DNA from: Betaproteobacteria bacterium | GTDB lineage: Bacteria > Pseudomonadota > Gammaproteobacteria > Burkholderiales > SG8-39 | DNA length: 64,000 nucleotides | NCBI GenBank assembly: GCA_947467435.1 | Contig: CANIIA010000003.1 | Location: 12,215 to 76,214 of the forward strand | Direction: 5' to 3' | Shown here: piece after piece, positions 6,410 through 37,530 of the stretch | Layout: each line of letters begins with the position of its first letter | Position numbering within the stretch: position 1 is the first letter of the stretch | Position numbers and translations under genes: made by a program | Notes under the pieces: generated by a model | Told to the model about the DNA's origin: nothing | The model's input: the letters and a program-made list of their open reading frames with translations, nothing else | Database searches by the model: none

Positions 6410-6448
6410 GCATCTGCTGCAGTTTGTGTTTTTTTCAGGAGCCCCCCC

Positions 6449-7444: not shown

Positions 7445-7471
7445 CGTCGTCACCTAAAAAATTACCGCCCC

Positions 7472-15776: not shown

Positions 15777-15778
15777 GC

Positions 15779-17308
15779 ATGAGCGAAGCACAGCACGAAC
15801 CCGTACAAGACGAAAATAAAATCATTGCCGAGCGGCGTGAAAAACTTACGCGCCTACGCAGCGAAGGCGCGGTGTTTCCTAACGATTTTGTGCGCCAACA
15901 CGGCATGGCAGCCTTAGCCGCACAGTACGGCGAACTCGACAAACCCACGCTTGAAGCAAAACAAATTCAAGTCAGCGTGGCTGGACGCATGATCTTAAAA
16001 CGCGTGATGGGTAAAGCCAGTTTTGCCACGCTGCAAGATGGCTCTGATGCTGGTTCTGGTATCGCAGGACGCGTGCAGATTTACATTACCAACGATGTCA
16101 CCGGAGCCGATGCTCACGAAGCCTTTAAGCATTGGGATATGGGCGATATTTTGGGGGTAACCGGCACGCTATTTAAAACCAACAAAGGCGAACTCACGGT
16201 CAATGCCAGCAGCGTGCGACTCCTCACCAAGTCGCTGCGCCCACTGCCCGAAAAATTTCATGGGCTCACTGACCATGAAGTGCGCTATCGCCAACGCTAT
16301 GTCGATCTTATCGTCAATGAAAGCGCGCGCAAAGTGTTTGCGGCCCGGTCCAAGGTCGTGCAATCCATTCGCGAGACCATGACCGGTGAAGGCTACCTCG
16401 AAGTCGAAACCCCCATGATGCACACCATTCCTGGTGGGGCCGCTGCGCGACCATTTAAAACGCATCACAACGCGCTCGATATGGAACTGTATCTGCGCAT
16501 TGCCCCAGAGCTCTATCTCAAGCGCTTAGTGGTGGGTGGCATGGAAAGGGTATTTGAGATTAACCGCAACTTTCGCAACGAAGGGATGTCTACTCGCCAT
16601 AACCCCGAATTCACCATGATGGAAATGTACTGCGCTTATGAAAATGTGCACTATATGATGGACCTGACCGAACGCATCATTCGCAACGCTGCGGCCAAGG
16701 CCTGTCAGGGCGCAACGACGCTGTCTTATCAAGGCCAGTCGATTGATCTTGGCAAACCCTTTGCGCGTCTCGCCATCCCCGATGCCATTCGTCAATTTGA
16801 TCCACAAAGTGACACCATGGACTTGCGTGATCGCAAATCGCTCGCCGCCCGTTTGTACCGGATGGGGGTGAGCACCACCAAACATCAAGGTTGGGGCGCG
16901 CTACAACTCATGCTGTTTGAAACCGTGGCAGAAAAGCATCTCATCGATCCCACCTTTGTCACCGACTACCCGGCCGAAGTCTCTCCGCTTGCGCGTCGTA
17001 ACGATGCGGATCCTGAGTTAGTCGATCGCTTTGAACTTTTTATTGATGCGAAAGAAATCGCCAATGGCTTTTCTGAGCTGAATGACCCTGAAGATCAAGC
17101 TGCGCGCTTTCACGAACAAGCCAAGAAAAAAGATGCCGGCGATCACGAAGCGATGTACTACGACGCCGATTACATCCGCGCGTTGGAATATGGATTGCCG
17201 CCGACCGCCGGTGCGGGGATCGGCGTCGATCGTATGGTGATGTTACTCACCGATAGTCCGAGTATTCGAGATGTGATTTTGTTTCCGCACATGCGCCACG
17301 AGAGCTAA
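15779..17308 (+). CDS. lysS: lysine--tRNA ligase (class II)
   Basis: 509 aa with an OB anticodon-binding N-domain and class II motifs ('FRNEG', '[14 protein letters not shown]'). It starts 2 nt after prfB, the classic prfB-lysS operon. Confidence 0.93.
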
Positions 17309-17351
17309 TCACTTCTCTCAACCCGTCCACTCACAAAACGTCCCCGCCCCC

Positions 17352-18302
17352 ATGGAACTCTACTGGCTACAAGATTTTCTCTCACTCGTGCGCAACGGCA
17401 ATTTCTCGCGCGCAGCGGCAGAGCGTCATGTCACGCAATCGGCATTTAGTCGTCGCATTCAAGCTTTAGAAGATTGGGCGGGTGCCCCGCTGTTTGATCG
17501 CGCCACACACCCCATCGAGCTGACCGAAGTCGGTCAAAAATTATTGCCCATCGCTGTGAGTAGTGTTGGGCCATTACTCGACTTTCGTCTGGCCACACGC
17601 AGTAACGCAACCGATGCGGCGCCCACCATTAGCTTCATCATGCCCACAGCGCTTTCTTCTGGGGTGTTCCCGCAACTACTGGGACGACTCAAACGAGAAA
17701 TTGGTCCAATGATTGGTCGCTGCGCCGTGCGCCGTATCGATGAAATCGCCAGCCATTGCGCCTCTGGAGAAGCGGATCTCGCACTCAACTATCGTCACCC
17801 TGCGCTGCCACGTCCGGTGCAATTTGATGAGCTCGATGCCATTGAAGTTGGTGATGACCCGCTGATTCCAGTGTGCGCACCACAACACCGTGACCACCCA
17901 GATTTTTGTTTACCGCTAGCGCCACAAGCCACACTCAATTACTTACCCTATGGAAGAAACTCCTACATCGGGCAGGCGGTTGATGCGGAGATCGCACAGC
18001 GTGTGTCACGCGTGCGCCAACAAAAACTCTTTGATGACCCATTAATTTTCGTACTCAAAGAGCTCGCGCAACAAGGCATCGGCGTGGCGTGGTTACCGCG
18101 CTGCGCGATTCAACGCAATTTGGCAGATGGCACCCTCATCCGCGCGGGGGGGGCAGAATGGGACATTCCACTCACGGTGGAGTTACTGCGTCGCCGTAAA
18201 AAATTAAGCGACACTGCAGAGGCCATTTGGTCTTTATTATCCCTGGGCGCAGCGCCACTCGATCGGCGGCCGGTCAAGCACCTGCGCGCGGTCGAAAAAT
18301 AA
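17352..18302 (+). CDS. LysR family transcriptional regulator
   Basis: N-terminal wHTH 'LQDFLSLVRNGNFSRAAAERHVTQSAFSRRIQALE' plus a LysR substrate-binding domain. Confidence 0.85.
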   Translation: MELYWLQDFLSLVRNGNFSRAAAERHVTQSAFSRRIQALEDWAGAPLFDRATHPIELTEVGQKLLPIAVSSVGPLLDFRLATRSNATDAAPTISFIMPTALSSGVFPQLLGRLKREIGPMIGRCAVRRIDEIASHCASGEADLALNYRHPALPRPVQFDELDAIEVGDDPLIPVCAPQHRDHPDFCLPLAPQATLNYLPYGRNSYIGQAVDAEIAQRVSRVRQQKLFDDPLIFVLKELAQQGIGVAWLPRCAIQRNLADGTLIRAGGAEWDIPLTVELLRRRKKLSDTAEAIWSLLSLGAAPLDRRPVKHLRAVEK

Positions 18303-18347
18303 ATCGCTGCCCCTAGATGAGTGCGGGGAGGGTCGGTGCGTTGCGGT

Positions 18348-19358
18348 TCAACTAGACAGCGCTTCGACCTGCACTGTCCAGGGTGGTAAGACGTCTTCAG
18401 GTTCTAAACCACGCACAATCATCACCACGCGGCTTCGCGTGGGTGGTGCAAGTTGCAACACATCAGGCGCGCCCACTAAATGTTGAATCGCATGCAGCGC
18501 CACTGCACATGGAATCTCTGTAACAGCCACAATACCTTTCACACGCAATAGGCGCGCACCGTGTTGCGTTGTTATGGCATGCAGCCAATCACCCATCGTT
18601 GTCATGGAGGTGCGCGTTTCCCAAGCCAACACAAAACTGCGCGTCTGATCATCGTGCTGCGTGCGCAAAGTCTTCGGATCAACGCGCTGACCTTGCGGCA
18701 AGTCGGGTTGCTGAAAGTGATTCACTTGCATGTGTGCGGGTTGTATCAAACGCACACACTCGGCTTGCGGATTGATTTCTGATAGCCGCGCATGCAAAGC
18801 GTCTAGGGCTACGGCCGATTGCAACGCGCATTTGTTGATGATCAATCGATCCGCGAGCAACACTTGTCGCCACTCTGTTGACTCGGATTGCAACGCCGCT
18901 TCACCAAGTAACGCATCGACCACTGTGACCACGGCATCAAGCCGGAAACGGCCCTGCAAGGCCGGCGATTCAGCAAACAGCTGTAGGATCGGCGCGGGTT
19001 CAGCAAGGCCACTGGTTTCAATCACGATGCGATTAAACGCGGGCATCTCGCCACGATGTACTGCGCGCTCAAGTTGCAAGATTGCTTGCACTAAATCGCT
19101 ACGCACCGCACAGCACACACAACCACCTGGCAGTAACACCACCTCTTCACTCGAGGATTGCACTAACACATCATCAATCCCAACTGCACCAAATTCATTG
19201 ACGATGATTGCCAAGCGTTGGTTGGGGGCAACCACTTGGCGTAACACAGCGTTTAAGAGCGTGGTCTTACCCGCACCCAAGGCCCCAGTAAGTACCGTGA
19301 CGGGGATCAGTGGTTTGATTGACTGCATGCCGTGGCTCGATGCGTCGCGCGTGATCAA
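18348..19358 (-). CDS. COG0523 / CobW-type G3E family GTPase (metallochaperone-like)
   Basis: Walker A 'GALGAGKTTLLN', metal motif 'GCVCCAV' (CxCC), 'ETSGLAEP', and a C-terminal CobW_C-like domain. Confidence 0.8.
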   Translation of the reverse strand: MITRDASSHGMQSIKPLIPVTVLTGALGAGKTTLLNAVLRQVVAPNQRLAIIVNEFGAVGIDDVLVQSSSEEVVLLPGGCVCCAVRSDLVQAILQLERAVHRGEMPAFNRIVIETSGLAEPAPILQLFAESPALQGRFRLDAVVTVVDALLGEAALQSESTEWRQVLLADRLIINKCALQSAVALDALHARLSEINPQAECVRLIQPAHMQVNHFQQPDLPQGQRVDPKTLRTQHDDQTRSFVLAWETRTSMTTMGDWLHAITTQHGARLLRVKGIVAVTEIPCAVALHAIQHLVGAPDVLQLAPPTRSRVVMIVRGLEPEDVLPPWTVQVEALSS

Positions 19359-19373
19359 CGCATCGCGTACAAA

Positions 19374-19865
19374 TTAAGTCGTTAAGCGTTTCACGATCAG
19401 CGTCAGTGCCGCACCGACGGCAGACAAGCGCACTGCATCGCGATCACCAGAAAACACATGGCGCTCAACGAGGGTGGGTTTACCGGTCGCCGCAGCAGCA
19501 ATGTAGCAAGTGCCCACTGGATTTTTTTCATTACCACCACCAGGTCCTGCGTAACCGGTCACCGCGACGCTCACGCCTGCTGTGGAATGCGCGAGTGCGC
19601 CTTCTGCGAGGCCTTGCGTGACCTCGGCACTCACCGCACCGTGGGCCTTCGAAATGTCATCTGATACACCCAAGCCGGTGGCCTTGGCGGAATCGTGATA
19701 CAGCACAAAACCACGTTCAAAAATTTTTGACGCACCCGATACGGAGGTAATGCACCCCGAAACCAATCCGGCAGTGCAAGTTTCTGCGGTCACGATACGC
19801 ACACCCGCAGCGCTCGCCGCTTGTAAAGCGCTCGACGCTTTTTGCAATAGTTCGGTTTCAAACAT
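19374..19865 (-). CDS. CinA C-terminal domain protein (PncC-like nicotinamide-nucleotide amidohydrolase family)
   Basis: 163 aa; 'TAETCTAGLV', 'GFVLYHDSAK' and 'TGYAGPGGG' are typical of stand-alone CinA-C/PncC proteins. Confidence 0.7.
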   Translation of the reverse strand: MFETELLQKASSALQAASAAGVRIVTAETCTAGLVSGCITSVSGASKIFERGFVLYHDSAKATGLGVSDDISKAHGAVSAEVTQGLAEGALAHSTAGVSVAVTGYAGPGGGNEKNPVGTCYIAAAATGKPTLVERHVFSGDRDAVRLSAVGAALTLIVKRLTT

Positions 19866-19884
19866 CGACAGTTCCTAAAATAAA

Positions 19885-21141
19885 TTACAAGGTGTTGGTG
19901 TACGCGCGACCGGCTTGCATCACCAACTTTAAGCGTTGGCGTTCTTCTAGCACACGAATATTGTCGAGTGGATCGCCATCGACCACGAGCACATCGGCAA
20001 TTTTTCCTGGTGCGATGACGCCCAAATCCTCCCGTCCAATGCATGCTGCGGCTTGCTGCGTCGCCGACACGAGCGCTTGCATTGGCGTCATGCCTAACCA
20101 ATCGACCATGAAGCGTAACTCGACTAAATTTTCACCGACCAACAGTCGATGCGATTGGTCGGTGCCAAACGCGACTTTCACCCCGCGCTTGACCGCCTCT
20201 TTCCACAACGGAATTTGTTGCTGCATGCGATCAAAAATTTCGCGCTCTTTCACGTCTTCGCTAGCTAACTGTTGTTTATCCCATGCGGTATTTTTTTTGC
20301 GATGTTCAAGTGATAACGGCACCAAGGCCAAGGTTGGCACCCACCACGTGCCGTGCTTTAGCATCAACGCGATACTTTCTTCGTCAATAAACCAGCCATG
20401 CTCAAGCGAGTGGATGTTGGCGTGTAGCGCCATGTTGATACCATCAATGCCTTCGGCATGCACCGCCACAGTTTTACGTCGAGCGCGCGCTTCGGTCACC
20501 GCCACTGCAATTTCTTCGGTTGAAAATTGCGGCTCATCCCAGGAATCAGTCACTGAGGTAATGCCTCCGGTTGCGCAGATCTTGATGAAATCTGCACCGG
20601 CCATGAGTAGATGACGCACCAGTCGACGCACTTCATCGGGACCATCGGCCACTGGGCTAGGCAACCAAGCCCGTTTTTGAATACGTAAGCCCGCAGGCAC
20701 CCACGCATCACCGTGACCACCGGTTTGCGAGACCATCGCGATGGCAATTTGCAAACGCGGCCCAGCAATCACCCCTTCTTCAATGGCGGCTCGGAATCCA
20801 GCATCGGCCCCGCCCATATCGCGCGCTGTGGTGACACCACACGCCAAGGTTTCTTCGAGCACCGTAGTAGAACGCAATACGTTATAGGTTGGCGTATTGA
20901 GTAAATGTTGTCGCATATCACGTGCACGATAGGTGCCGTGCACGTGACAATCAATCATGCCTGGCAGCACCGTGCGGCCGGCGGCATCGAGAACGTTGGC
21001 GCCCTTGGGTACGCTGACGTTGCTCCCAACAGCGCTGATACGCTCGCCTTCGATTAATACCGTCGTGTTACGTTGCGGGTCACGGCCACTGCCATCAATA
21101 AGTGTCGCGCCTGTAATTGCCACTACGTTGGCCGTTGTCAC
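19885..21141 (-). CDS. metal-dependent amidohydrolase (COG1228-like, imidazolonepropionase-related)
   Basis: 'ITGATLIDGSG', 'LPGMIDCHVHG' (HxH) and downstream His/Asp ligand blocks ('VAVHAEG', 'FGTDQ'). The start is refined to GTG 21141, directly after the upstream stop. The ORF-track N-terminal extension overlaps the ALDH gene. Confidence 0.75.
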   Translation of the reverse strand: MTTANVVAITGATLIDGSGRDPQRNTTVLIEGERISAVGSNVSVPKGANVLDAAGRTVLPGMIDCHVHGTYRARDMRQHLLNTPTYNVLRSTTVLEETLACGVTTARDMGGADAGFRAAIEEGVIAGPRLQIAIAMVSQTGGHGDAWVPAGLRIQKRAWLPSPVADGPDEVRRLVRHLLMAGADFIKICATGGITSVTDSWDEPQFSTEEIAVAVTEARARRKTVAVHAEGIDGINMALHANIHSLEHGWFIDEESIALMLKHGTWWVPTLALVPLSLEHRKKNTAWDKQQLASEDVKEREIFDRMQQQIPLWKEAVKRGVKVAFGTDQSHRLLVGENLVELRFMVDWLGMTPMQALVSATQQAAACIGREDLGVIAPGKIADVLVVDGDPLDNIRVLEERQRLKLVMQAGRAYTNTL

Positions 21142-21142
21142 G

Positions 21143-22612
21143 TTAATTCTCCAAATCCACAAAGACGTTTTTAATTTCGGTGTAAAGAGCCAACGCGTGT
21201 AAGCCCAATTCACGACCCAAGCCCGAGCGTTTATACCCACCAAAGGGCGCAAGATAACCATAGCGGCTCGCACTGCCGTGTGAGTTAATGCTGATCATGC
21301 CGCTTTTCAAAGCACGCGCCACACGCAAGCCACGTGCAATATCTCGCGTCCACACCGAACCGTTCAAGCCATATATATTGTCATTGGCCATCGCCACGAC
21401 GTCACTTTCTGTCTCAAAAGCGATCACCACCACCACGGGACCAAATATTTCTTCTTGTGCAACACGCATGTCGTTGCGCGCATTGGCAAGAATGGTCGGG
21501 GCGTAAAACGCAGCGCCATCCAATCCCTTCGGGCGCGCACCGCCAATCGCCAAGGTACATCCCTCGGCTAGACCCAATTGCACATAACCATGCACACTGT
21601 CCCACTGCGATTGCGAAATCAATGGACCAATCTCGGTGCTGGCTTGCAGCGGATCACCTAACTTTACTTCTTTGGTTGCCGCAACAAAGCGCGCTAAAAA
21701 TTGATCGTAAACCGAGCGTTCAACAAATACACGCGTGCGTGCTGAGCAACTTTGTCCGGCGTTCCCAAATCCGGCTTTGACCGCTTGCACTGCGGCTTTT
21801 TCTAAATCGGCATCAGCAAAAATAATATTCGGGCTTTTACCGCCGAGCTCGAGGGTGATGCGCTTAATGTCATCGGCCCCCAGCTTTAGTAAGGTGGCGC
21901 CCGTTTTTGTTTCGCCAGTGAAGGTGATTTTGTCGATGCCTGGATGCGTCGCGATACGCTCACCTAAGGTGGCGCCCGGCCCCGGCAAAATATTCAGTAC
22001 ACCCGCGGGGACACCTGCATCGATCACGATTTGCCCCAGGGCCAAGGCAGTGAGTGGTGAGTAACTGGCCGGTTTTAAAATCATGGTGCAGCCGGCTGCC
22101 AGTGCAGGCGCCACTTTCCATGCCGCAGCCATGAATGGAAAATTCCAAGGCGTGATCGCTGCAATCACGCCAATCGGTTCGCGTAACGTAAAGTCAAGTA
22201 CAGCATCACCCATGGGGATGGTGTCGCCGTAAAACTTATCCATCGCCCCGGCGTAGTAATCAAACACATTGGCTGCAGCATCGACTTCATTTAAGGCATT
22301 GCCAATCGTTTTACCGCTATTTCGGGTTTCAAGTTCGGCGATTGCGCGTGATTGATCGCGAATCCGTTGCGCGATCTCGCGCAAAAAACGACCGCGTTGT
22401 GTGGGTTGCATGCCGGACCAACGTCCATCCTCAAACGCGCGACGCGCAGCAACGACTGCTCGATCTAAATCTTGTAAGCCAGCTTTTGCCACTTCTGCAA
22501 GGGGCTGCAAGTTGCAGGCGCTATAGGTGGTGAAGGTTTGCCCTGATTGCGCAGGAACAAATTGTCCATCAATGAGTAATTCAGTGCGAAGTAGATTCAT
22601 AAAAATAGGCAC
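21143..22612 (-). CDS. NAD(P)-dependent aldehyde dehydrogenase
   Basis: 'ELGGKSP' and the catalytic Cys block 'FGNAGQSCSA'; 'EEIFGPV'. The start is either GTG 22612 or ATG 22600. Confidence 0.85.
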   Translation of the reverse strand: MPIFMNLLRTELLIDGQFVPAQSGQTFTTYSACNLQPLAEVAKAGLQDLDRAVVAARRAFEDGRWSGMQPTQRGRFLREIAQRIRDQSRAIAELETRNSGKTIGNALNEVDAAANVFDYYAGAMDKFYGDTIPMGDAVLDFTLREPIGVIAAITPWNFPFMAAAWKVAPALAAGCTMILKPASYSPLTALALGQIVIDAGVPAGVLNILPGPGATLGERIATHPGIDKITFTGETKTGATLLKLGADDIKRITLELGGKSPNIIFADADLEKAAVQAVKAGFGNAGQSCSARTRVFVERSVYDQFLARFVAATKEVKLGDPLQASTEIGPLISQSQWDSVHGYVQLGLAEGCTLAIGGARPKGLDGAAFYAPTILANARNDMRVAQEEIFGPVVVVIAFETESDVVAMANDNIYGLNGSVWTRDIARGLRVARALKSGMISINSHGSASRYGYLAPFGGYKRSGLGRELGLHALALYTEIKNVFVDLEN

Positions 22613-22627
22613 AGACCGAAGAGCGAA

Positions 22628-23380
22628 TCATGAAAATAAACGCGCGCAGTGCGCAGGAAGTTCTGCCAACGTGCGTAGGTGCACATCCACCTCAGCCGGA
22701 ACATTTTGCGCAGTCGGTGCGAGCCACGCCGTATGCAAACCGAGCGCTTTACCACCACGCACATCATTATTGAAATCATCGCCCACATACAGGGTGCGCG
22801 AGGGCACAGCTTGCATCGCGGCGAGGGCTGGCGCAAAACATTCTCCGTGGGGCTTCATCCATCCGGTTTCGGACGACACCACAACCACCTCAAAGTATTG
22901 CAGCAAAGCAAAACGCGCCAGCGTCGCGCTCACCACCGGACCATGCGGGTAGTTCGAGACCACCCCCAATCGATAGTGCTGCGCCAACTGCGGAATGACT
23001 TCTGCGCTGTCAGCAAGCAGTCGGGCTTCACGCGTGACTTCCTCACCCAATGCATCGGCCAATGCATCGAGAAATTCGCGCGGAGGCACACTGACTTGCG
23101 CCATCGAAAATGCCATCGCGAAGCGATCGGCAAAGCTGTGTTCGCGCTGCGATTGTTTGGATTGTCGAATCTGCGCCGCGCACGCGGCTAAGTAATGCGG
23201 CCGAAATTGCGCAAACGGTAACGTGACGTTTGCCTCGCGCAGCGCTTGCATCATCGACCCGTCATACACGCGTGCAAGACACGCCACATGGGCATCGGGA
23301 TCATGAACCATCCCAGGAATCCACATCAGCGTTTCGCCCCAGTCAAACAACACCACTGGACGCGTTGCGCTGTGGGTCAT
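22628..23380 (-). CDS. HAD superfamily hydrolase (subfamily IA-like) with atypical motif I
   Basis: Motif I is 'VLFDWGETL' and motif IV is 'YVGDDFNNDVRG'. The Asp+2 of the DxDxT phosphatase motif is replaced (D-W-G-E-T). Confidence 0.7.
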   Translation of the reverse strand: MTHSATRPVVLFDWGETLMWIPGMVHDPDAHVACLARVYDGSMMQALREANVTLPFAQFRPHYLAACAAQIRQSKQSQREHSFADRFAMAFSMAQVSVPPREFLDALADALGEEVTREARLLADSAEVIPQLAQHYRLGVVSNYPHGPVVSATLARFALLQYFEVVVVSSETGWMKPHGECFAPALAAMQAVPSRTLYVGDDFNNDVRGGKALGLHTAWLAPTAQNVPAEVDVHLRTLAELPAHCARLFS

Positions 23381-23382
23381 GT

Positions 23383-24114
23383 TCAGGCCGCCGCCAGCGC
23401 TTGGTCTGCAAGCGCCATTGCTGCCGCACGTGGATCAGGTGCGTCATACACCGCACGCCCAACCACACCAATCACGCTACAACCCGGGGCGGCCTTGACT
23501 AACTCATCTAATTTGCCGCCCAGCGGACCAATGCCAGGCACCACAAAGACGGTGTCTTTGCCGCGCGCGTTCATTTCTGCGCTGATCCAGTGTGCGTGAT
23601 AGCGCAATTTATCGGTGGTGTTTCCGGGAACAATAAAGTGTGCACAACCGACTTCGAGGGAGGTTTTAAAAATCCGCTCGAGCGCATCATCCGCAATATA
23701 ACCACCGCCACTCACGTTGTAATCAGGAAACGGCAAATCACCACCGACAATCGGCAGCATGCCGTGTTTGATGGTTTCGCCAACAAACCCCTGCACAGCG
23801 CGGGTCCCTGCCGTCGGAAATAAGATCAAGCCATCGACCTTTGCTTCGGCGCATAACTTGGCAAACTTCGCGGCCATATCAAACACATCAGGGCCGGCTT
23901 TTTGGTGGTCATACAGCAACGGCAAATCGGTATGGGCGCGCATCTGTCGGACTGTTTCTGCCAAGCCTAGACGCAACACCGTGGTCATCCCCAACTTGTA
24001 ACCCACCACGCCCTGCACGGGCGTGGTCAGATCGATGGTGCGTTTGCACGCATCAACGGTCTCGGCATCCAGCGCCACAATCAAACCGTGCCGCGCACGA
24101 AACTGCACGGTCAT
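23383..24114 (-). CDS. orotidine 5'-phosphate decarboxylase-like (OMPDC/KGPDC superfamily) protein
   Basis: 'LIVALDAE' start of the barrel, 'GYKLG', 'LLYDHQKAGPDV', and a C-terminal phosphate-loop-like 'VVGRAVYDAPDP'. The start is refined to MTVQFRA (24114), 1 nt after the upstream stop. Confidence 0.6.
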   Translation of the reverse strand: MTVQFRARHGLIVALDAETVDACKRTIDLTTPVQGVVGYKLGMTTVLRLGLAETVRQMRAHTDLPLLYDHQKAGPDVFDMAAKFAKLCAEAKVDGLILFPTAGTRAVQGFVGETIKHGMLPIVGGDLPFPDYNVSGGGYIADDALERIFKTSLEVGCAHFIVPGNTTDKLRYHAHWISAEMNARGKDTVFVVPGIGPLGGKLDELVKAAPGCSVIGVVGRAVYDAPDPRAAAMALADQALAAA

Positions 24115-24115
24115 C

Positions 24116-25006
24116 TCAACCGCCGCTTTGCAAACGGCCAATCGTGCGCAACGCGCTGGGCTTGATATCTTTCACATCCAAACTGATATCCACCGCACGC
24201 ACCGAGTGCGTGAGATCGCCCACTGAAATCACATCGACGCCGGTCTCAGCGATTTCTACAATGGTCGACTCATTGACGCCCCCCGAGGCCTCAGTAATCG
24301 CACGGCGATTCACCAGCTTTAAACCTGCGCGCATTTCATCGAGATCCATGTTGTCGAACATAATCACCTCCACCCCACAATCCAGCGCTTCTTGCACCAT
24401 CTCTAGGGTTTCGCATTCGACTTCAAACTTAAACGTGTGCTGTGCACGTGCACGCAATATTTCGACCGCTTTGGTGATGCTGCCTGCTAACTTGATGTGA
24501 TTGTCTTTCACCAACACGCAATTGGTGAGATTAAAAATATGGTTGTGCGCCCCACCCACACGCACCGCATATTTCTGCACCATGCGTAGACCTGGCCATC
24601 CTTTGCGCGTATCTGTCACACGTACATTGGTGTGCTTCACCAAGTCCAAATAGCGACGGGTTTTGGTGGCGATACCGGACAGTTGCTGAACCCAATCGAG
24701 CGCTGCACGTTCAATACAAAAAAAGGTTGAGGCCTTGGCGCGAATCTTTAACAACACCGTGCCGGGCTGAATCGGATCGCCTTCACGCACACCGTAGTCG
24801 ACACTGGCTTCGGGCTCGACGAGCTTGATGGTCTCTTCAGCAAACATCAGTCCGCACGCCACACCCACGCCTTTGGCGTAAATCTGTCCGGTCAGTACAG
24901 GATCGTCTTGCCACACCAAAAAACCACCAGTGGTATCACCGGCATTGAGTTCTTCACGTAAGCCAGCTTCTACGAGGGGGCGAATCATAAAACGGTTCAA
25001 ATGCAT
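24116..25006 (-). CDS. type II phosphoribosyltransferase, nicotinate-nucleotide pyrophosphorylase (NadC/QAPRTase)-like
   Basis: Collinear with NadC: 'ERAALDW', 'TDTRKGWPGLR', 'KYAVRVGGAHNHIFNL', 'LVKDNHI', 'MFDNM', 'EASGGV', 'ISVGDLTHS'. The conserved N-H-R reads N-H-I. Confidence 0.75.
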   Translation of the reverse strand: MHLNRFMIRPLVEAGLREELNAGDTTGGFLVWQDDPVLTGQIYAKGVGVACGLMFAEETIKLVEPEASVDYGVREGDPIQPGTVLLKIRAKASTFFCIERAALDWVQQLSGIATKTRRYLDLVKHTNVRVTDTRKGWPGLRMVQKYAVRVGGAHNHIFNLTNCVLVKDNHIKLAGSITKAVEILRARAQHTFKFEVECETLEMVQEALDCGVEVIMFDNMDLDEMRAGLKLVNRRAITEASGGVNESTIVEIAETGVDVISVGDLTHSVRAVDISLDVKDIKPSALRTIGRLQSGG

Positions 25007-25183
25007 GTTGCTCTCCGGACAAGCCCGACTGGGCGGGGGTTATTTTTTTATCAATACACGATAGCCACTGTAGCCGACTGACGGCCAATTCGGCGCACCA
25101 TGTAAAGCCTGCATCATGCGCGCTGCGCATACCACCGAAGCTGCATCGGCTGTGGCTCGCGTGAAAAATCGCTGCGTCTATTT

Positions 25184-25828
25184 TTAAAATGCATCGGCCT
25201 GCGTCGAGGGTTCGACTGAGCGAACTGCCGGCAGCGCAGCCCCCGCTTCAAAAACGCGCATCACCGTCGGGTAAGCCGACAAATCACAATCAAAACGCTG
25301 CGCGTTAAATACTTGCGGAATCAGGCACACATCCGCCATCGTGAACTGATCGCCCAAGCAATACCGGCCCACGCGCTGTTGTGACAGCAAAAATGCTTCA
25401 AGACTTTTCATGCCCTCAGCAATCCAATGCGGATACCACTGACGGTTGACGCCAGCATCATCCATACCGCAATGCGCTTTTAAATACTTCAATACCCGCA
25501 CGTTATTCAAGGGATGAATTTCGCAGCCAATAATTTGCGAGACTGCGCGTACATACCATTTCTCTTCAGCCCCCTTAGGCATCAGCGCGGGTTCTGGGTG
25601 CACGTCATCCAAATACTCAATCATCGCCATCGATTGCGTAAATACACGCCCCGCTTCATCGATCAGAGCAGGCACCAAGCCTTGCGGATTTTTTGCAAGG
25701 TACGTCGGATCGTGATGTGCCATTTTGGGCAAGCTCACGTATTTAGGCGTCCAAGCCAGACCCTTATAGGCAAGCGCAATACGCAAGCGAAACGAGGTCG
25801 ATGAACGAAAAAAGGTATAGAGCTCCAC
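25184..25828 (-). CDS. maiA: maleylacetoacetate/maleylpyruvate isomerase (glutathione S-transferase zeta class)
   Basis: Zeta-class signature 'RSSTSFRLRIAL' and 'NPQGLVPAL'. Confidence 0.75.
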   Translation of the reverse strand: MELYTFFRSSTSFRLRIALAYKGLAWTPKYVSLPKMAHHDPTYLAKNPQGLVPALIDEAGRVFTQSMAMIEYLDDVHPEPALMPKGAEEKWYVRAVSQIIGCEIHPLNNVRVLKYLKAHCGMDDAGVNRQWYPHWIAEGMKSLEAFLLSQQRVGRYCLGDQFTMADVCLIPQVFNAQRFDCDLSAYPTVMRVFEAGAALPAVRSVEPSTQADAF

Positions 25829-25835
25829 GTGAACC

Positions 25836-26204
25836 TCAGGCCGACGATTTATCTAACAGGTGTTGCGGCGTACTTGAAATGACTTTGGCGTAGTGCGGAA
25901 TAAACCCACTGCCTTTGATGTGTTTGATAAACGCCGGCTTCAGCTCTTCGGCCAAAATCTTGCGAATACGTGCATGCTCTTCGATGTCTTTCCACTCAGC
26001 AATCAACCAAAAATGCGTGGGATCTTTCACGTCTTGGCACAGCACGCCATCCTTTACTTGCGCCCAAGATTTATGCATCGGGTTGTTATCGCCATAATCA
26101 AATTCATTGAACAAAGCCACAAACTCATCGATGTGATTGGCATCCACAATAAAGTCGTAGATGTGAAGAAAATTCCCTTCGGAAGCTAACGGTACCAATG
26201 CCAT
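25836..26204 (-). CDS. small ABM-like (antibiotic biosynthesis monooxygenase / ferredoxin-fold) protein
   Basis: About 122 aa after refining the start to MALVPL (AGGAGA 6 nt upstream). The composition and 'WLIAEWKDIEEHARIRK' resemble ABM-domain proteins. This is a weak assignment. Confidence 0.4.
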   Translation of the reverse strand: MALVPLASEGNFLHIYDFIVDANHIDEFVALFNEFDYGDNNPMHKSWAQVKDGVLCQDVKDPTHFWLIAEWKDIEEHARIRKILAEELKPAFIKHIKGSGFIPHYAKVISSTPQHLLDKSSA

Positions 26205-26221
26205 GCGAAGTCTCCTAAAAA

Positions 26222-27433
26222 TTAAAACCAGCTCTTGATGGTGCTCACCATCCAGCGCCAAAACACACCTGCTGCATCCATGGGACTCATCGGCGCAGCA
26301 CCCGCCGGTGCGGCGACAGCTTCGCCCGGTGCTCCGCTTGCGCTTGATCCGGCACCTAAGCGTGCGTTGAGATTGGCGGCAAAATCAGCCACCATTTTTT
26401 TCACGAACTCCTTCACTAATCCACCGCGTGAAAATTGCGCTAACGGACCTTGCAAACTGTATTCAATGGCAACTGCAACCCGTGTGCGACCATTGCCTGC
26501 ATCAGAGAGGGCGTACGTAATGTCGCCACGTGCGCGCGAATTCGATAACGAATCAGTGCCTGCACCACGTATGGAACCAGCATGGGTCGCTGCATTGCGC
26601 TCTAACGCAGCAGAGCCCACAAAGGCCGCGCGCATCGGACCAAACTTGGTGCTGATCTTGCCTTTAATACTGGTGGGCGTGTGTTCGGTAATTTCGGCAC
26701 CGGGCAAACAGGCCGCGACTTTAGGCATGTCTGCAAACGCTTCCCACACCACATCGATCGGATGATCCACCTCAAACGCGTCTTCGATGCGTGTACCTGG
26801 CTTTTTATTTGCAGTGTCGCTTGGTGTTGCCGCAGCGGCTGTCGGTGAAGCCGTAGCGGGTGCAACGGAGGCTGCAGCGGATGCTTGATTTGCAACCGCT
26901 TGAAACGACGGCAGCGGTGCACGCGCGGCCGTCGCGACAGGCTCGACGCGATCGGCATTGGCTGCGCGTCGCGATTCGATCACCGAGACAATCGCGTTGA
27001 TGATGCCTTGATAACCAGTGCAACGACACAAATTACCTGACATCTGTACGCGCACTTCGTGGGCGTCTGCTGTTGGACAACGCAACACGACATCGCGCGC
27101 GCTAATCAACATGCCGGGTGTACAAAAGCCACACTGCAAGGCATGAAAGCGACTAAACGCAGTTCGCAGTTGCGCCATCACCTCGTCTTCTTCAAAGCCC
27201 TCGATGGTGCGTACTTGCTGACCATCACAGGCCACTGCATACGCAATACAAGCACGAGAGGGCACCCCCTCAATAAGTACCGTACATGCACCGCACACAC
27301 CGTGTTCGCAACCCAAGTGCGTACCGGTGAGTCGCTGGTTATCGCGTAAAAAATCGCCTAAATGGGTGCGTGGTTCGACCAAGGCTTGAATTTTTTCGCC
27401 ATTGATGGTCATGTTGATTGCTTGCATAGACAT
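26222..27433 (-). CDS. molybdenum hydroxylase [2Fe-2S] small subunit (CoxS-like) fused to a CoxG/SRPBCC domain
   Basis: N-terminal 'CEHGVCGACTV', 'CGFCTPG' and 'CRCTGY'. An Ala/Pro/Thr linker follows. The C-terminal part, 'FEVDHPIDVVWEAFADMPKVAACLPGAEI...', resembles carbon monoxide dehydrogenase subunit G. Confidence 0.8.
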   Translation of the reverse strand: MSMQAINMTINGEKIQALVEPRTHLGDFLRDNQRLTGTHLGCEHGVCGACTVLIEGVPSRACIAYAVACDGQQVRTIEGFEEDEVMAQLRTAFSRFHALQCGFCTPGMLISARDVVLRCPTADAHEVRVQMSGNLCRCTGYQGIINAIVSVIESRRAANADRVEPVATAARAPLPSFQAVANQASAAASVAPATASPTAAAATPSDTANKKPGTRIEDAFEVDHPIDVVWEAFADMPKVAACLPGAEITEHTPTSIKGKISTKFGPMRAAFVGSAALERNAATHAGSIRGAGTDSLSNSRARGDITYALSDAGNGRTRVAVAIEYSLQGPLAQFSRGGLVKEFVKKMVADFAANLNARLGAGSSASGAPGEAVAAPAGAAPMSPMDAAGVFWRWMVSTIKSWF

Positions 27434-27450
27434 CTGTTACATCCTTTGTT

Positions 27451-28272
27451 TCATGCCGTCGCGAGTTGCACTGCGCGGCGGACTGCGGTTTGGTGCAAAC
27501 GGCGTTGCGCGGCATCGATTTTTCCAAGCACGGGTTCAAGCGCTTGACTCACTGAAAGATCGGAGATCGCTAAAAATCCACGCTGCGCAATATCGACAGC
27601 GAGCGCATTGAGCGATTGCGGCGCGCCGTTCAGTGCACCGATCCACACACGCGCAACTTTGCGTTGTGGATCGAGCAACACGGCAGCGCTCGCTTCAGGA
27701 AACTCACCCGTCTTGCGACAAAACTTCCAATAACCCCAACGCGCGTCGGCCGAAATTTTTGGGACCTCCACGGCGGCGATGATTTCATCTTCTGCAAGGG
27801 CAGTACCAAACGCCGCGGTCATAAACGATTCAGCCGCCACACGTCGTTCACCGGATACGCCAGCAATCACGATCGTTGCGCCCAATGCAGGCATGGTGAG
27901 CGGCCAATCCGCAGCGGGGTCCGCATGCGCCAAGCTACCGCCAACCGTGCCGCGATTTCGAATGGCACGATACGCAATACCGCGCGCTACTTGTGCCAAA
28001 GGCTCACATCCAACGAGCACACGATCTTCGAGCATGGCGTGGGTCACACCACCACCGATACGCCATGCAGTGCCAAGGTCTTCAATCACCTTCAGTGCGG
28101 GTAGTGTGGACACATCCAGAATTTTTTTCGGGCGTGCCAAACGCAAATTCAACATCGGGCCGAGCGACTGTCCACCGCCAAATAATTTGGCTTCGCCATT
28201 CGATGCGCGTAACGCGCTCACCACGGCGCTTAACTCGGTGGGCTTTTGATATTCAAATGCGGCTGCTTTCAT
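27451..28272 (-). CDS. molybdenum hydroxylase FAD-binding medium subunit (CoxM-like)
   Basis: 'MKAAAFEYQKP...LFGGGQSLGPMLNLRLARP'. The start is refined to 28272 (AAGGAGA upstream). The ORF-track extension overlaps the large-subunit gene. Confidence 0.85.
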   Translation of the reverse strand: MKAAAFEYQKPTELSAVVSALRASNGEAKLFGGGQSLGPMLNLRLARPKKILDVSTLPALKVIEDLGTAWRIGGGVTHAMLEDRVLVGCEPLAQVARGIAYRAIRNRGTVGGSLAHADPAADWPLTMPALGATIVIAGVSGERRVAAESFMTAAFGTALAEDEIIAAVEVPKISADARWGYWKFCRKTGEFPEASAAVLLDPQRKVARVWIGALNGAPQSLNALAVDIAQRGFLAISDLSVSQALEPVLGKIDAAQRRLHQTAVRRAVQLATA

Positions 28273-28282
28273 TGCATTCTCC

Positions 28283-30661: not shown

Positions 30662-30680
30662 CACCCCTCCAATTGCCGCG

Positions 30681-30704
30681 CCGAACAGCCCGCAGGCTGT
30701 TCGG
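30681..30704 (-). other. perfect 10-bp stem / 4-nt loop hairpin in the dctP-to-coxL intercistronic spacer
   Basis: ccgaacagcc-cgca-ggctgttcgg read directly. It lies about 20 nt upstream of the large-subunit start, with no U-tract. Confidence 0.8.
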
Positions 30705-30815
30705 TCTTCGGTACAACAAGTCACGCCGATTCAGTCGGGCCAAAGCGCCGACGGCGCATCAGCGTGACTCAAACAACATCAAACTCATGTGCTGCATGTC
30801 ACGACTGCGCGCGAC

Positions 30816-31907: not shown

Positions 31908-32092
31908 GCTTTACTCCTTGGAATAACCGGCGATGCCGGTGGTTATAAAAAACAACAACAAAACCTTCGATCACAACAAGACGTTCAGCCGCTACAAGAC
32001 ATCGCATCACGTCTAACAGCTAAATATTTTCTACAATCCAACCGTCACGTAGCAAGCCACGGTCACAAAAAAATCTTGCGCAACAACCTCGC

Positions 32093-34113: not shown

Positions 34114-34116
34114 AAA

Positions 34117-35112: not shown

Positions 35113-35267
35113 GTTAGGCTTGGGTTGGTTCGTTGATAAACAGTGCCGGGCTCAGTTTCAACCCGGCGAAATGCGAATCATGCACTGATTTTAGGCAATG
35201 GGTACTGTCAGCAATGAACGTGCCCAAGGCAAAGTGGTATTCGACGATTGCATACTGAAACAAGATC

Positions 35268-36047: not shown

Positions 36048-36055
36048 CAACAATG

Positions 36056-37501: not shown

Positions 37502-37530
37502 TGAAATTCTTTCACAACTGATGGTTAAAG

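Follow-up and report, generated by a model that had tools for sequence, protein, structure and literature searches.

What are relatives of three nucleotide enzymes doing in a tightly packed gene cluster of catabolic type? Seven genes raise this question in the window, by which we mean the whole 64,000-nucleotide stretch of betaproteobacterial DNA that was analyzed. A preliminary description had proposed that an imported heteroaromatic acid or amide is joined to PRPP and then processed as a mononucleotide.

The cassette, its flanks and its distribution

All seven genes lie on the minus strand, at the coordinates given in the preliminary description. They encode a NadC-like type II phosphoribosyltransferase (NadCl; 24116..25006; 296 aa; Pfam QRPTase_N/C), an OMP-decarboxylase-like TIM-barrel protein (OMPDCl; 23383..24114; 243 aa from ATG; Pfam OMPdecase), a HAD-IA hydrolase and putative nucleotidase (22628..23380; HAD_2), an NAD(P)-dependent aldehyde dehydrogenase (ALDH; 21143..22612; GTG start; Aldedh), a metal-dependent amidohydrolase of the carboxypeptidase/ochratoxinase (COG1228) group (19885..21141; GTG start; Amidohydro_1), a CinA-C/PncC-like putative mononucleotide amidohydrolase (19374..19865; CinA) and an accessory COG0523 GTPase metallochaperone (18348..19358; cobW and CobW_C). 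In this order the intergenic gaps measure 1, 2, 15, 1, 19 and 15 nt, again as first described, and profile searches recovered the QRPTase, OMPdecase and CinA domains together with the other domain calls. The accompanying statement that the three families act only on nucleotides does not hold: Pfam OMPdecase also takes in the HUMPS sugar-phosphate enzymes, and NCBIfam has a CinA-type '2-oxo-tetronate isomerase'.

Convergent with the cassette is an ORF for a LysR-type regulator (17352..18302, plus strand; HTH_1/LysR_substrate domains on its L002 homologue). Homologues 65-71% identical occupy the same position in 15 loci, and this protein is likely the cassette regulator in Burkholderiales; across loci, the regulators are of LysR or GntR types, which are typical of catabolic operons. 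On the other side, a minus-strand block (25184..30724) encodes a MaiA-like GST (25184-25828), a small ABM-like protein (25836-26261), a 2Fe-2S+CoxG subunit (26222-27433), an FAD subunit (27451-28563) and a Mo-hydroxylase large subunit (28283-30724). The Mo hydroxylase had been described as co-transcribed with these genes, a view that needs correction: together with MaiA it forms a lineage-specific add-on present in only a subset of Burkholderiales loci. A gap of 178 nt sets the MaiA block apart from the NadC-like gene, and about 5 kb of other genes on the opposite strand lie between block and cassette in L002, L015, L024 and L030, so that we regard it as a separable unit; other loci have the cassette without any Mo hydroxylase.

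Beyond this block lies a minus-strand TRAP system, the likely importer in this lineage, comprising DctP (30816-31907), DctM (32093-33577) and DctQ (33574-34113), each identified by its Pfam domain. It too had been listed among the co-transcribed genes, and proves to be one of several alternative transporters across genomes, the others being MHS-type MFS, Liv-type ABC and NMT1-type ABC systems. DctQMP proteins 84-87% identical adjoin the cassette in L033, L034, L044 and L045, directly upstream of NadCl in the first two. The TRAP binding protein is a member of the TakP alpha-keto-acid subfamily and shares 60% identity with B. bronchiseptica BB0280 (4yic/4yzz; TM 0.91-0.98), which may bind picolinate.

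Relatives of OMPDCl with a YDHQKAG motif occur in 526 species genomes. Among 48 full loci (at least 6 kb of flank; a PRTase counted within 9 kb of the OMPDC-like gene), 47 have a type II PRTase near OMPDCl, NadC-like in 42 and NAMPT-like in 6, and the pairing first noticed in the window thus recurs in other genomes. Co-clustering extends over beta-, alpha-, gamma- and delta-proteobacteria, Acidobacteriota, Rubrobacteraceae and Mycobacterium; the genes change places from phylum to phylum, yet the set itself is kept, and this arrangement is far beyond chance. The amidohydrolase is found in 39 of the 48 full loci, the PncC-like gene in 38, the ALDH in 37 and a HisI-like gene in 5, the PncC-like and HisI-like genes being mutually exclusive. 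HAD is an accessory member present in about half of the loci. COG0523, originally listed as a member of the set, is indeed present here but is accessory (14/48); in the wider survey it occurs in 27 loci from beta- and alpha-proteobacteria and Mycobacterium.

In its minimal form, seen in Mycobacterium (L087), the cassette consists of NadCl, OMPDCl and an MFS carboxylate-type transporter. Other versions are larger: a PRPP synthetase (L076, L083, L090), an IU-nucleoside hydrolase (L074, L076, L088, L092) and a PfkB kinase (ribokinase; L092) have joined the cluster in unrelated lineages, with HAD accompanying the IU-nucleoside hydrolase and PfkB kinase in L074 and L092. OMPDCl is paired with a canonical-type NadV (562 bits vs a cut-off of 405) in gammaproteobacteria and one cyanobacterium; this PRTase lies beside OMPDCl and CinA in L057, L064, L068, L075 and L088.

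Diverged paralogues and their partners

NadCl passes the NCBI equivalog model for nadC (TIGR00078, 285.8 bits vs a cut-off of 198). Its identity to the solved NadCs 3gnn and 1x1o is 39.5-41.7% (39.5% to the Burkholderia NadC), against 65-78% to the NadCl proteins of Acidobacteriota, Actinobacteria and alpha- and delta-proteobacteria. Compared with canonical NadC, the PRPP-binding residues and the alpha-carboxylate ligand are kept. The 'NHR' motif, however, becomes 'NH[I/L/M]', the equivalent of Arg161 being Ile, Leu or Met in 70 of 70 members; in NadC this arginine is part of the quinolinate 3-carboxylate pocket (PMC3633916). The family further has TRKG where canonical NadC has TRKT, LD in place of LN, and a conserved 'DIKPSALRTI' extension at the C-terminus. 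Since NadCl passes the nadC model and retains Arg138, His160 and Lys171, quinolinate activity may remain. No nadA, nadB or nadQ was found beside NadCl in the loci examined. As far as its sequence tells, NadCl is a diverged NadC paralogue subfamily rather than the housekeeping NadC.

OMPDCl (database protein P0001) scores only 48.7 bits with Pfam OMPdecase, and all pyrF equivalog models failed (17-47 bits vs cut-offs of 92-208). The motif YDHQKAGxD, invariant in the family, stands in place of DxKxxD; D9, K33, D62, H63, Q64, K65, D69 and G212-R213 are invariant. The strand-1 Asp, strand-2 Lys, Asp/Lys/Asp cluster and Gly-Arg phosphate gripper are thus all retained, and the likeness to a phosphate gripper noted earlier is borne out: VVGRAVYDAPDP aligns to Gly202-Arg203 of M. 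thermautotrophicus OMPDC. Where true OMPDC has Gln185, OMPDCl has Leu, and the Ser127 loop has also been replaced. The AF2 model (pLDDT 87.8) finds true OMPDCs as its best Foldseek matches (TM 0.80-0.88). OMPDCl is a diverged OMPDC paralogue rather than the housekeeping PyrF. Public sources label it 'orotidine-5'-phosphate decarboxylase'. More distant YDHQKAG members carry OPRT-like domain fusions in both orders; in P0399 and P0412 the OPRT-like part passes TIGR00336, and in P0391 the YDHQKAG domain is fused to CinA.

The PncC-like protein matches CinA (147.7 bits) and passes TIGR00199 (PncC domain). Across its family ESCTGG has become ETCTAG, which places Thr at the catalytic Ser31 and Ala at G34; Y58, K63, T105/G106 and R145 are kept, the NMN phosphate ligands being Y58, S48 and R145 (roles of Ser31, Lys63 and the phosphate ligands from PMC5384747). 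It, too, is a diverged paralogue rather than the housekeeping PncC. The HisI-like gene directly follows OMPDCl in 7 loci; its product has all metal ligands and scores below the HisI equivalog cut-offs (97-112 bits vs 126).

The remaining enzymes are less specific. HAD matches HAD_2 (60.9 bits), and its best NCBIfam model is the YjjG non-canonical pyrimidine nucleotidase (82 bits, below cut-off). Its motif I reads DWGET, with Gly family-wide in place of the Asp+2 general acid expected of phosphatases, which counts against a role in dephosphorylation. ALDH (Aldedh, 559 bits) passes no equivalog model, has generic BADH/ALDH1-2 enzymes as PDB neighbors and accompanies the NadC-like gene in most loci. 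The amidohydrolase (Amidohydro_1, 167.7 bits) conserves the metal ligands HxH, His, His and Asp; its nearest solved relatives are the Cc2672 L-Arg carboxypeptidase, prolidase-type enzymes, ochratoxinase and ADH3.

A proposed PRPP-activated route and its alternatives

On balance we lean towards a conserved module that processes a pyridine-type carboxylate as a nucleotide, with the ribose-5-phosphate of PRPP as a temporary activating handle. The PRPP-activated route is the part of the preliminary description best supported by the computed evidence, the enzymes not being housekeeping ones; the Mo hydroxylase and MaiA are not a conserved part of it. Four lines of evidence point this way: synteny is conserved across phyla; the three paralogues show family-wide change of a base-recognizing or catalytic residue and keep their ribose-5-phosphate ligands (PMC3633916, PMC5384747); PRPP synthetase, nucleoside hydrolase and ribokinase were recruited in unrelated lineages; and the OMPDCl family is fused to OPRT-like domains and to CinA. 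Our literature search found no published description of the cluster or pathway, in agreement with the earlier claim of novelty.

We infer both the substrate and the order of steps. The carboxylate would be imported, here through the TRAP system, and NadCl would join its ring nitrogen to PRPP without the arginine that clamps the quinolinate 3-carboxylate. OMPDCl would then remove the carboxylate adjoining the ribosylated nitrogen, by the logic of the OPRT/OMPDC pair, a decarboxylation that N-alkylation should make chemically easy. The PncC-like protein may next hydrolyze an amide on the mononucleotide, a HisI-like cyclohydrolase acting instead in some lineages. HAD would take off the phosphate; elsewhere, nucleoside hydrolase, ribokinase and PRPP synthetase would free the base and recover the ribose for reuse. 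The product (NaMN or similar) may instead enter the NAD pool. For ALDH and the carboxypeptidase-type amidohydrolase we see a probable role in forming the acid from an aldehyde or an amide, or else in the further conversion of a product, and COG0523 probably metallates the amidohydrolase. The place of the amidohydrolase is a guess, its nearest relatives cleaving N-acyl amino acids. As substrates we tentatively suggest picolinate-like acids (pyridine-2-carboxylates), possibly with a carboxamide. Nicotinamide, the normal substrate of NadV, lacks an alpha-carboxylate; in NadV loci the OMPDCl step is accordingly unexplained, unless a carboxylated nicotinamide is used there.

The genes might instead serve NAD salvage only, turning an unusual pyridine precursor (a pyridine dicarboxylate or carboxy-nicotinamide) into NaMN in low-flux vitamin scavenging rather than catabolism. 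Each of the three nucleotide enzymes has its paralogue in the NAD pathway, canonical-type NadV adjoins OMPDCl and CinA in the loci named above, a NUDIX gene follows CinA in L085, and Bordetella salvages quinolinate through NadC with dedicated binding proteins (PMC11452294). We nevertheless consider this reading unlikely, given the high-capacity transporters, the LysR/GntR regulators and the location in a catabolic island. Neither nadD, nadE nor nadR was present in the Pfam-annotated neighborhoods of related loci, nor did an NAD-specific regulator such as NadQ (PMC11452294) adjoin the cassette there. Furthermore, the PRPP synthetase, ribokinase, nucleoside hydrolase and nucleotidase-like HAD of some clusters imply stoichiometric ribose turnover with release of the base, not retention of NaMN.

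Somewhat less probable again is destruction of the ring at the nucleotide level. After N-ribosylation and decarboxylation, the HisI-like protein, the CinA-like protein or the amidohydrolase would open the ring hydrolytically beside the ribosylated nitrogen, ALDH would oxidize the aldehyde formed, and ribosylamine-5-P would yield NH3 and ribose-5-P; if true, this would amount to a cleavage of the pyridine ring that needs no oxygen. In the histidine pathway, HisI opens PR-AMP at the ring bond adjoining its N-ribosylated nitrogen, and RidA proteins, whose genes lie nearby in L088, L090 and L091, deaminate enamines and imines. The HisI-like partner with its metal ligands and the nearby RidA are a hint of ring opening rather than simple trimming, and count against the reading we prefer. 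The near-constant company of ALDH and NadCl, and the cis-trans isomerase MaiA upstream in the window, are also consistent with ring opening. However, ring destruction on the ribose would leave nucleoside hydrolase, ribokinase and nucleotidase-like HAD without a purpose, ALDH is missing from the Bacillus versions that carry the HisI-like gene, and no glutaconate or aminomuconate genes are conserved downstream. CinA chemistry, moreover, concerns an exocyclic amide (PMC5384747).

We give very little credence to ordinary housekeeping nadC, pyrF and pncC lying by chance near catabolic genes, or to OMPDCl as an unrelated HPS/KGPDC-type sugar-phosphate enzyme. The passing nadC and PncC-domain models and the public label of OMPDCl speak for housekeeping genes; against them stand the loss of the Arg161 equivalent, the failed pyrF models with the replaced DxKxxD, and the co-clustering of the same gene set across phyla. 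Carriers such as Bacillus presumably possess a standard pyr operon besides. KGPDC and HPS have a metal-binding Glu on strand 2, where OMPDCl has Lys, and its fold is nearest to true OMPDCs. A biosynthetic role, in which a pyridine acid would be built into a modified nucleoside, a nucleotide natural product or a cofactor, is just as improbable, for although PRTase, decarboxylase and phosphatase follow a nucleoside-building logic and a LarC-like Ni-insertion gene lies 3.5 kb off in L001, that neighbor was seen only once, the transporters are importers rather than exporters, there are no tailoring or resistance genes, the regulators are of catabolic type, and phyletic spread is very broad with high conservation. 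With processing on a PRPP-derived handle as the preferred reading, the cassette is a strong candidate for experiment.

Comparison with known systems

A close parallel in logic is OPRT with OMPDC (PyrE/PyrF, UMP synthase), where an OMPDC-fold enzyme comes directly after a PRPP-dependent transferase; the OPRT-like fusions of distant YDHQKAG members recall UMP synthase itself. The cassette transferase, however, is of type II (NadC or NAMPT fold), not type I, OMPDCl departs from PyrF in DHQKAGxD, the Leu for Gln185, the Ser127 loop and the failed pyrF models, and the surrounding cluster, of catabolic type, includes ALDH, amidohydrolase and a PncC-like gene. With NadC, including quinolinate salvage in Bordetella and S. 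pyogenes (PMC11452294), the cassette shares the fold, the PRPP-binding residues, a binding-protein-dependent importer beside the PRTase and, presumably, transfer of ribose-5-P to a pyridine nitrogen with an alpha-carboxylate present. It differs in the roughly 40% identity of NadCl, its altered Arg161 position and C-terminal extension, and its partnership with a separate putative decarboxylase, no nadA, nadB or nadQ being present with it in the loci examined.

The cycle of NadV (NAMPT) and PncC resembles the cassette in the NMN phosphate ligands and catalytic Lys63 kept by the CinA-like protein, and in the canonical-type NadV adjoining it in gammaproteobacteria and a cyanobacterium. The CinA-like family nonetheless has Ser31 to Thr and G34 to Ala changes, and is always accompanied by an OMPDC-like gene, for which the known cycle has no place. 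The nic (nicotinate) and pic (picolinate) routes likewise involve an imported pyridine acid, a three-subunit Mo hydroxylase such as lies upstream in the window, a cis-trans isomerase and amidases. These routes attack the free base by way of monooxygenases and ring-cleaving dioxygenases, and we know of none in which PRPP, a NadC paralogue or an OMPDC-fold enzyme takes part; the cassette, for its part, also occurs without a Mo hydroxylase. Finally, in the C-P lyase system (PhnI/PhnM and others) and in histidine biosynthesis (HisG-HisI), attachment of ribose-phosphate enables a hard bond cleavage. Enzyme families, substrates and bonds cleaved all differ from those of the cassette, whose HisI-like protein fails the HisI cut-offs, but the proposed ribose-phosphate handle, the HisI-like cyclohydrolase of some versions and the adjoining genes for ribose and PRPP recycling are common ground.

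The cassette and its genomic setting

Seven genes packed on the minus strand at 18348-25006 make up the cassette: a NadC-like type II phosphoribosyltransferase (PRTase; 24116-25006), an OMP-decarboxylase-like protein (OMPDC-like; 23383-24114), a HAD protein (22628-23380), an ALDH (21143-22612), an amidohydrolase (19885-21141), a CinA-C/PncC-like protein (19374-19865) and a COG0523 protein (18348-19358). The reading frames lie where the preliminary description had placed them, with intergenic gaps of 1, 2, 15, 1, 19 and 15 nt, and Pfam and NCBIfam profile searches recovered every domain it had assigned to them. With its ATG start, the OMPDC-like gene encodes 243 aa, identical to a database protein (P0001); the amidohydrolase gene starts with GTG.

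Upstream of the cassette, the same strand encodes a MaiA-type GST, a small ABM-like protein, a Mo hydroxylase, a TRAP transporter and a 2OG oxygenase. The Mo hydroxylase comprises three subunits, and its Fe-S subunit is fused to CoxG (2Fe-2S subunit and CoxG/SRPBCC domain in one protein, 26222-27433, minus strand); in a related Burkholderiales locus, L002, gene calling joins the FAD, Fe-S and CoxG parts into a single 1012-aa protein. Beyond the 2OG oxygenase lie a divergent SDR, an amidase (36056-37552, minus strand) and a four-component AndA-like Rieske oxygenase. The region that includes the amidase (36056-42561, minus strand) also encodes the Rieske beta subunit, reductase and ferredoxin as well as an EamA transporter, and its Rieske oxygenase resembles the anthranilate dioxygenase AndAc with a score of 404 bits, under the cut-off. 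This region looks like a further piece of the same catabolic island, and its products possibly act on an amino- or amido-substituted aromatic or heteroaromatic acid. The island extends from about 18.3 to 42.5 kb. It is bordered on one side by prfB and lysS (14718-17308), a placement shared by L002, and on the other by PHB genes, the housekeeping flank at 43463-48240 (minus strand) carrying a bktB thiolase gene, rimO, phaR and two acetoacetyl-CoA reductase paralogues.

The best NCBIfam match of the SDR (35268-36047, plus strand) is an SDR-type pyridoxal 4-dehydrogenase (203.7 bits versus a cut-off of 325), and homologues of this SDR come after CinA in three related loci (L039, L044 and L048). 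A 207-aa reading frame at the operon head ('unk207', 35114-35737, minus strand) was rejected as an antisense artefact: its sequence is of low complexity and the real plus-strand SDR lies opposite. Rfam E-value scans of positions 17000-43000 and of the Bacillus-type loci returned no relevant riboswitch or known RNA element. Promoter and terminator scans of positions 17300-36500 gave counts at or under the shuffled expectation and are thus uninformative on co-transcription.

A pattern scan for the motif [LVI]YDHQKAG, with one genome per species, identified OMPDC-like relatives encoded in 526 genomes. We examined the neighbourhoods of 80 of these loci, together with eight further contexts. The preliminary description had singled out this group of genes as a candidate system, and a set consisting of the NadC-like, OMPDC-like, ALDH, amidohydrolase and CinA genes does recur in many lineages, namely beta-, alpha-, gamma- and delta-proteobacteria, Acidobacteriota, Rubrobacteraceae and Mycobacterium. 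Gene order varies by lineage, examples being amidohydrolase-NadC-OMPDC-ALDH-CinA and OMPDC-HAD-ALDH-[ABC transporter]-amidohydrolase-NadC-CinA. Components were counted in the 48 loci with at least 6 kb of flank on each side, PRTases being counted within 9 kb of the OMPDC-like gene. A type II PRTase is found at this distance in 47 of the 48 loci; NadC-like genes occur in 42, NAMPT-like genes in 6, an amidohydrolase in 39, CinA in 38, ALDH in 37, HAD in 23 and COG0523 in 14. The smallest version, in a Mycobacterium (L087), consists of the NadC-like and OMPDC-like genes and an MFS transporter gene.

The whole operon, as first delineated, does not hold up as a conserved unit. The Mo hydroxylase and MaiA genes are present only in some Burkholderiales, and in four loci (L002, L015, L024 and L030) about 5 kb of opposite-strand genes separate them from the cassette. 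Since these upstream genes are both patchy and separable, the conserved unit is the cassette itself. The inserts between MaiA and the NadC-like gene in these four Burkholderiales MAGs (approximately 4200-8900) encode SoxA, SoxZ and SoxY and a second, two-subunit Mo enzyme. A tblastn search of a plasmid collection with the OMPDC-like protein produced zero matches. Cultivable carriers include Bacillus methanolicus PB1, B. smithii, Aneurinibacillus danicus, Tistlia consotensis and Mycobacterium palustre, which makes the question of function directly testable.

Diverged paralogues and their companions

The NadC-like, OMPDC-like and CinA-like proteins are most probably diverged paralogues and not housekeeping enzymes. 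The NadC-like protein passes the NCBI nadC equivalog TIGR00078 (285.8 bits versus a cut-off of 198.4), with both QRPTase_N and QRPTase_C found, scores 199 bits against T. thermophilus NadC and fails the ModD model TIGR01334 (77.2 bits versus 178.85). Its identity to NadC of B. pseudomallei, itself a beta-proteobacterium (PDB 3gnn), amounts to 39.5%, and that to its NadC-like counterparts in Acidobacteriota, Actinobacteria and alpha- and delta-proteobacteria to 65-78%. The canonical 'NHR' is changed to 'NH[I/L/M]' in 70 members out of 70, the equivalent of Arg161 being Ile157 in the window protein. In pig/human numbering, Arg138, His160, Arg161 and Lys171 form the basic pocket for the 3-carboxylate of NaMN or quinolinate, and Arg161 is reported as key for quinolinate binding (PMC3633916). 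Arg138, His160 and Lys171 are kept in the NadC-like protein, the 3-carboxylate pocket being incomplete by the loss of Arg161 only. Also retained is the 'ER' arginine, which we take to be the 2-carboxylate ligand of NadC. Judging from this pattern of lost and kept residues, the substrate probably still carries a carboxylate beside the ring nitrogen, with something else at position 3. In the loci examined, none of nadA, nadB and nadQ adjoins the NadC-like gene. Two apparent amidohydrolase-NadC fusions (L081 and L069) were discarded, their long reading frames being out-of-frame extensions in high-GC DNA.

OMP decarboxylases are characterized by a DxKxxD catalytic motif and by Ser127 and Gln185, which recognize the pyrimidine (M. 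thermautotrophicus numbering). The OMPDC-like protein matches Pfam OMPdecase with 48.7 bits and fails four pyrF equivalog models (46.9, 30.4, 28.7 and 17.5 bits versus cut-offs of 208, 92.3, 193 and 110.6, respectively). Residues D9, K33, D62, H63, Q64, K65, D69 and G212-R213 are invariant in 19 diverse members. Upon alignment with the M. thermautotrophicus enzyme, D9, K33, D62 and D69 correspond to Asp20, Lys42, Asp70 and Asp75, K65 to Lys72 with a two-residue insertion, and G212-R213 to the phosphate gripper Gly202-Arg203. The family has the motif D62-H-Q-K65-A-G-x-D69 instead of DxKxxD; furthermore, an invariant Leu191 stands at the position of Gln185, and GGxLPFxDY takes the place of the Ser127 loop.

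The preliminary description had raised the alternative that this protein is an HPS/KGPDC-type enzyme. KGPDC and HPS have a metal-binding Glu on strand 2 where OMPDC has Lys, and the OMPDC-like family carries the invariant Lys33 there, as OMPDC does. In an NCBIfam profile search, no HPS or KGPDC model was matched. The AF2 model (pLDDT 87.8) has true OMPDCs for all of its top 50 Foldseek PDB matches (TM 0.76-0.88). The protein is therefore not an enzyme of the HPS/KGPDC type.

The CinA/PncC-like protein passes TIGR00199 (127.3 bits versus 68.9) and fails the NF002975 equivalog (131.8 bits versus a cut-off of 212). Mutagenesis of A. tumefaciens PncC has shown that S48, Y58 and R145 bind the NMN phosphate, that Lys63 is the general base and that Ser31 is catalytic, the S31A variant being inactive (PMC5384747). 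The family keeps the three phosphate ligands, the general base and T105/G106. Its ESCTGG motif is changed to ETCTAG, with Thr in place of Ser31 in at least 95% of 55 members. All three paralogues thus keep the parts holding the ribose 5-phosphate, and each is altered in a part that reads or attacks the base.

The remaining proteins are less specific. In the HAD protein, motif I reads DWGET, so that the Asp+2 general acid is replaced by Gly, followed by Glu, as in 49 family members. The nucleophile Asp and motifs II-IV are present and the YjjG score is 82 bits versus a cut-off of 160; the loss of Asp+2 makes the nucleotidase assignment uncertain. The amidohydrolase scores 170-222 bits against 9kov, 8ihq, 3mtw, 3mkv, 3feq, 2qs8 and 4c5y. 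With its metal ligands conserved (HxH, His, His and Asp), it fits the Cc2672/ochratoxinase (COG1228) group, and among proteins of known structure it is closest to enzymes that cleave N-acyl amino acids and ochratoxin; it passes no equivalog, reaching 286 bits versus 500 for the Xaa-Pro dipeptidase model. The COG0523 protein has cobW (157.9 bits) and CobW_C (36.7 bits) domains and a P-loop, and falls under the cut-offs for the CobW, ZigA and YeiR-type equivalogs. The PDB and NCBIfam neighbours of the ALDH are generic and indicate no substrate class.

Partners of the OMPDC-like family

An exhaustive profile search for OMPDC-like relatives (E<=1e-30) produced 174 cluster representatives. In several of them, the YDHQKAG-type domain is fused to a type I OPRT-like domain, which comes before it in some proteins and after it in others. 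Four such fusions (P0399, P0412, P0392 and P0415) have 444-501 aa; in P0399 and P0412 the OPRT-like domain passes TIGR00336 pyrE, and in P0392 (97.4 bits versus 106.8) and P0415 it is slightly under the pyrE cut-offs. The motif variant in P0415 is IDYQKAG. These fusions may represent an unrecognised type of UMP synthase. Another protein of high GC content, P0391, joins an OMPDC-like domain to a CinA domain with Thr for the catalytic Ser (VETVTAG); an apparent frameshift is seen in its C-terminal part.

Genes of PRPP and ribose metabolism are also found in the clusters. A PRPP synthetase gene lies inside the cluster in an Aneurinibacillus (L076), in a Xanthobacteraceae MAG (L083) and in L090, and an IU-type nucleoside hydrolase gene is present in L074, L076, L088 and L092, followed in L092 by a PfkB kinase gene. 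Together with the HAD protein, these gene products could close a loop in which base and PRPP yield the nucleotide, then the nucleoside, then base and ribose, the latter being returned through ribose-5-P to PRPP. Both the PRPP/ribose genes and the fusions argue for a central place of PRPP chemistry and ribose turnover and for an OMPDC-like family that always works with a phosphoribosyltransferase; the wider family looks like UMP-synthase-type decarboxylases.

The PRTase itself varies. In gamma-proteobacteria and one cyanobacterium, the adjoining PRTase is a canonical-type NadV (L068 also has a NadC-like gene nearby), and in Bacillus it is a divergent NAMPT-like protein (165 bits versus a cut-off of 405). 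The third paralogue is also exchanged: in seven loci, from Rubrobacteraceae, Bacillus and Aneurinibacillus, Mycobacterium and Roseateles-like genomes, CinA is absent and a HisI-like PRA-CH protein directly follows the OMPDC-like protein. This protein keeps all metal ligands, matches Pfam PRA-CH with 70 bits and is under the HisI equivalog cut-offs. CinA and HisI-like genes have zero co-occurrence in the 48 full-flank loci. Transporters differ by genome (TRAP, MHS-type MFS, Liv-type ABC, NMT1-type ABC and TTT), cluster regulators are of the LysR or GntR types, and occasional neighbours encode UbiD decarboxylases, amidases, large Amidohydro_3 proteins, nitrile hydratase and RidA.

Several of these loci have particular features. 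In the gamma-proteobacterial MAG L068 (8461-9757), a nitrile hydratase is encoded between the NadC-like and OMPDC-like proteins; its alpha subunit has a CTLCSC motif, and two small reading frames upstream of the alpha gene look like parts of the beta subunit. This hints at cyanopyridine or amide feedstocks. A divergent Burkholderiales/Roseateles version (L078 and L082, 7133-9057) has a NadC-like protein that is only 49% identical, with the motif PHM; a PsuG/IndA-like C-glycosidase homologue and an alpha/beta hydrolase precede the cassette, and HisI-like and ALDH genes follow it. In Bacillus smithii (L086, 4700-8300), Zur boxes (TCGTAATCATTACGA), some perfect and some nearly so, are found only in front of an S14 paralogue, znuA and a COG0523 gene, these genes and znuABC being located immediately downstream of the NAMPT-like/OMPDC-like/HisI-like/HAD cluster. 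We rejected the idea that the cluster belongs to a Zur (zinc-starvation) regulon: no Zur box precedes the NAMPT-like/OMPDC-like genes in L086, and none is found near the cluster in L080 or L076.

A possible PRPP-dependent route and its relation to known systems

The TRAP binding protein of the window (30816-31907, minus strand) is a member of the TakP alpha-keto-acid subfamily; it shares 60% identity with B. bronchiseptica BB0280 (PDB 4yic/4yzz; TM 0.91-0.98), and its next-closest relatives, TakP and 7ug8, bind alpha-keto acids. The 4YIC entry for BB0280 was presumably deposited with bound picolinic acid. Near-identical TRAP genes are located directly upstream of the NadC-like gene in two related genomes (L033 and L034) and beside the cassette in two others (L044 and L045). 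We infer tentatively from the likeness to BB0280, combined with the lost 3-carboxylate arginine, that picolinate-like acids may be the cassette substrates.

The preliminary description had proposed a PRPP-activated shunt for heteroaromatic acids. In the form that we put forward on the basis of sequence, structure prediction and synteny, an imported acid would be N-phosphoribosylated by the NadC-like enzyme and the product alpha-decarboxylated by the OMPDC-like enzyme. The Thr-type PncC would then hydrolyse an amide, or the HisI-like enzyme would carry out a different hydrolysis. Finally, the product would be dephosphorylated, the base released and the ribose recycled, or it would enter the NAD pool as NaMN. 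N-alkylated pyridine-2-carboxylates decarboxylate readily via an ylide, a reactivity used by QAPRTase and formally similar to that of the OPRT/OMPDC pair, and this chemistry makes the decarboxylation step plausible. OMPDC-like genes beside a canonical NadV, and the HAD protein devoid of Asp+2, would seem to fit the proposed steps poorly. In view of the HisI-like partner and the RidA neighbours, a more radical reaction may also be considered, in which the ring of the nucleotide is itself opened by hydrolysis.

A broader scheme goes further, and we hold it to be rather unlikely in its entirety. Bacteria of many phyla would use PRPP to alkylate the pyridine nitrogen, making otherwise inert substituents or the ring labile; the OMPDC-fold enzyme, with DHQKAGxD as a new active-site motif, would decarboxylate the N-ribosyl pyridinium; the Thr-type PncC or HisI-like enzyme would perform a hydrolysis, possibly an O2-free ring opening; and nucleotidase, nucleoside hydrolase, ribokinase and PRPP synthetase would recycle the ribose. 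It would follow that the OPRT-like/YDHQKAG fusions represent an unrecognised type of UMP synthase.

A PRPP-handle route, if real, would constitute a new logic for the degradation or salvage of N-heterocycles and a new reaction type for the intensively studied OMPDC fold. It would give functions to three widely mis-annotated paralogue families, publicly named or scored as OMP decarboxylase, NadC and PncC/CinA, and would be relevant to what becomes of pyridine acids in soil and water, to the scavenging of NAD precursors and to the biocatalytic decarboxylation of heteroaromatic acids.

To our knowledge, the known bacterial routes for nicotinate, picolinate, quinolinate and similar acids act on the free base and require oxygenases. 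A full-text literature search found no description of the cassette cluster, the nearest paper dealing with canonical NadC quinolinate salvage in Bordetella (PMC11452294). We regard the cassette as a putative, so far undescribed pathway built from paralogues of known enzymes, and there is a real chance that the chemistry itself is new. With the free-base nic/pic pathways it has only context genes in common. Each of its counterparts of NadC, PyrF and PncC fails at least one defining feature of the parent family. Elements of the NadC and NadV-PncC routes appear to have been borrowed, and the system that the cassette would most resemble in its working is the OPRT/OMPDC pair.
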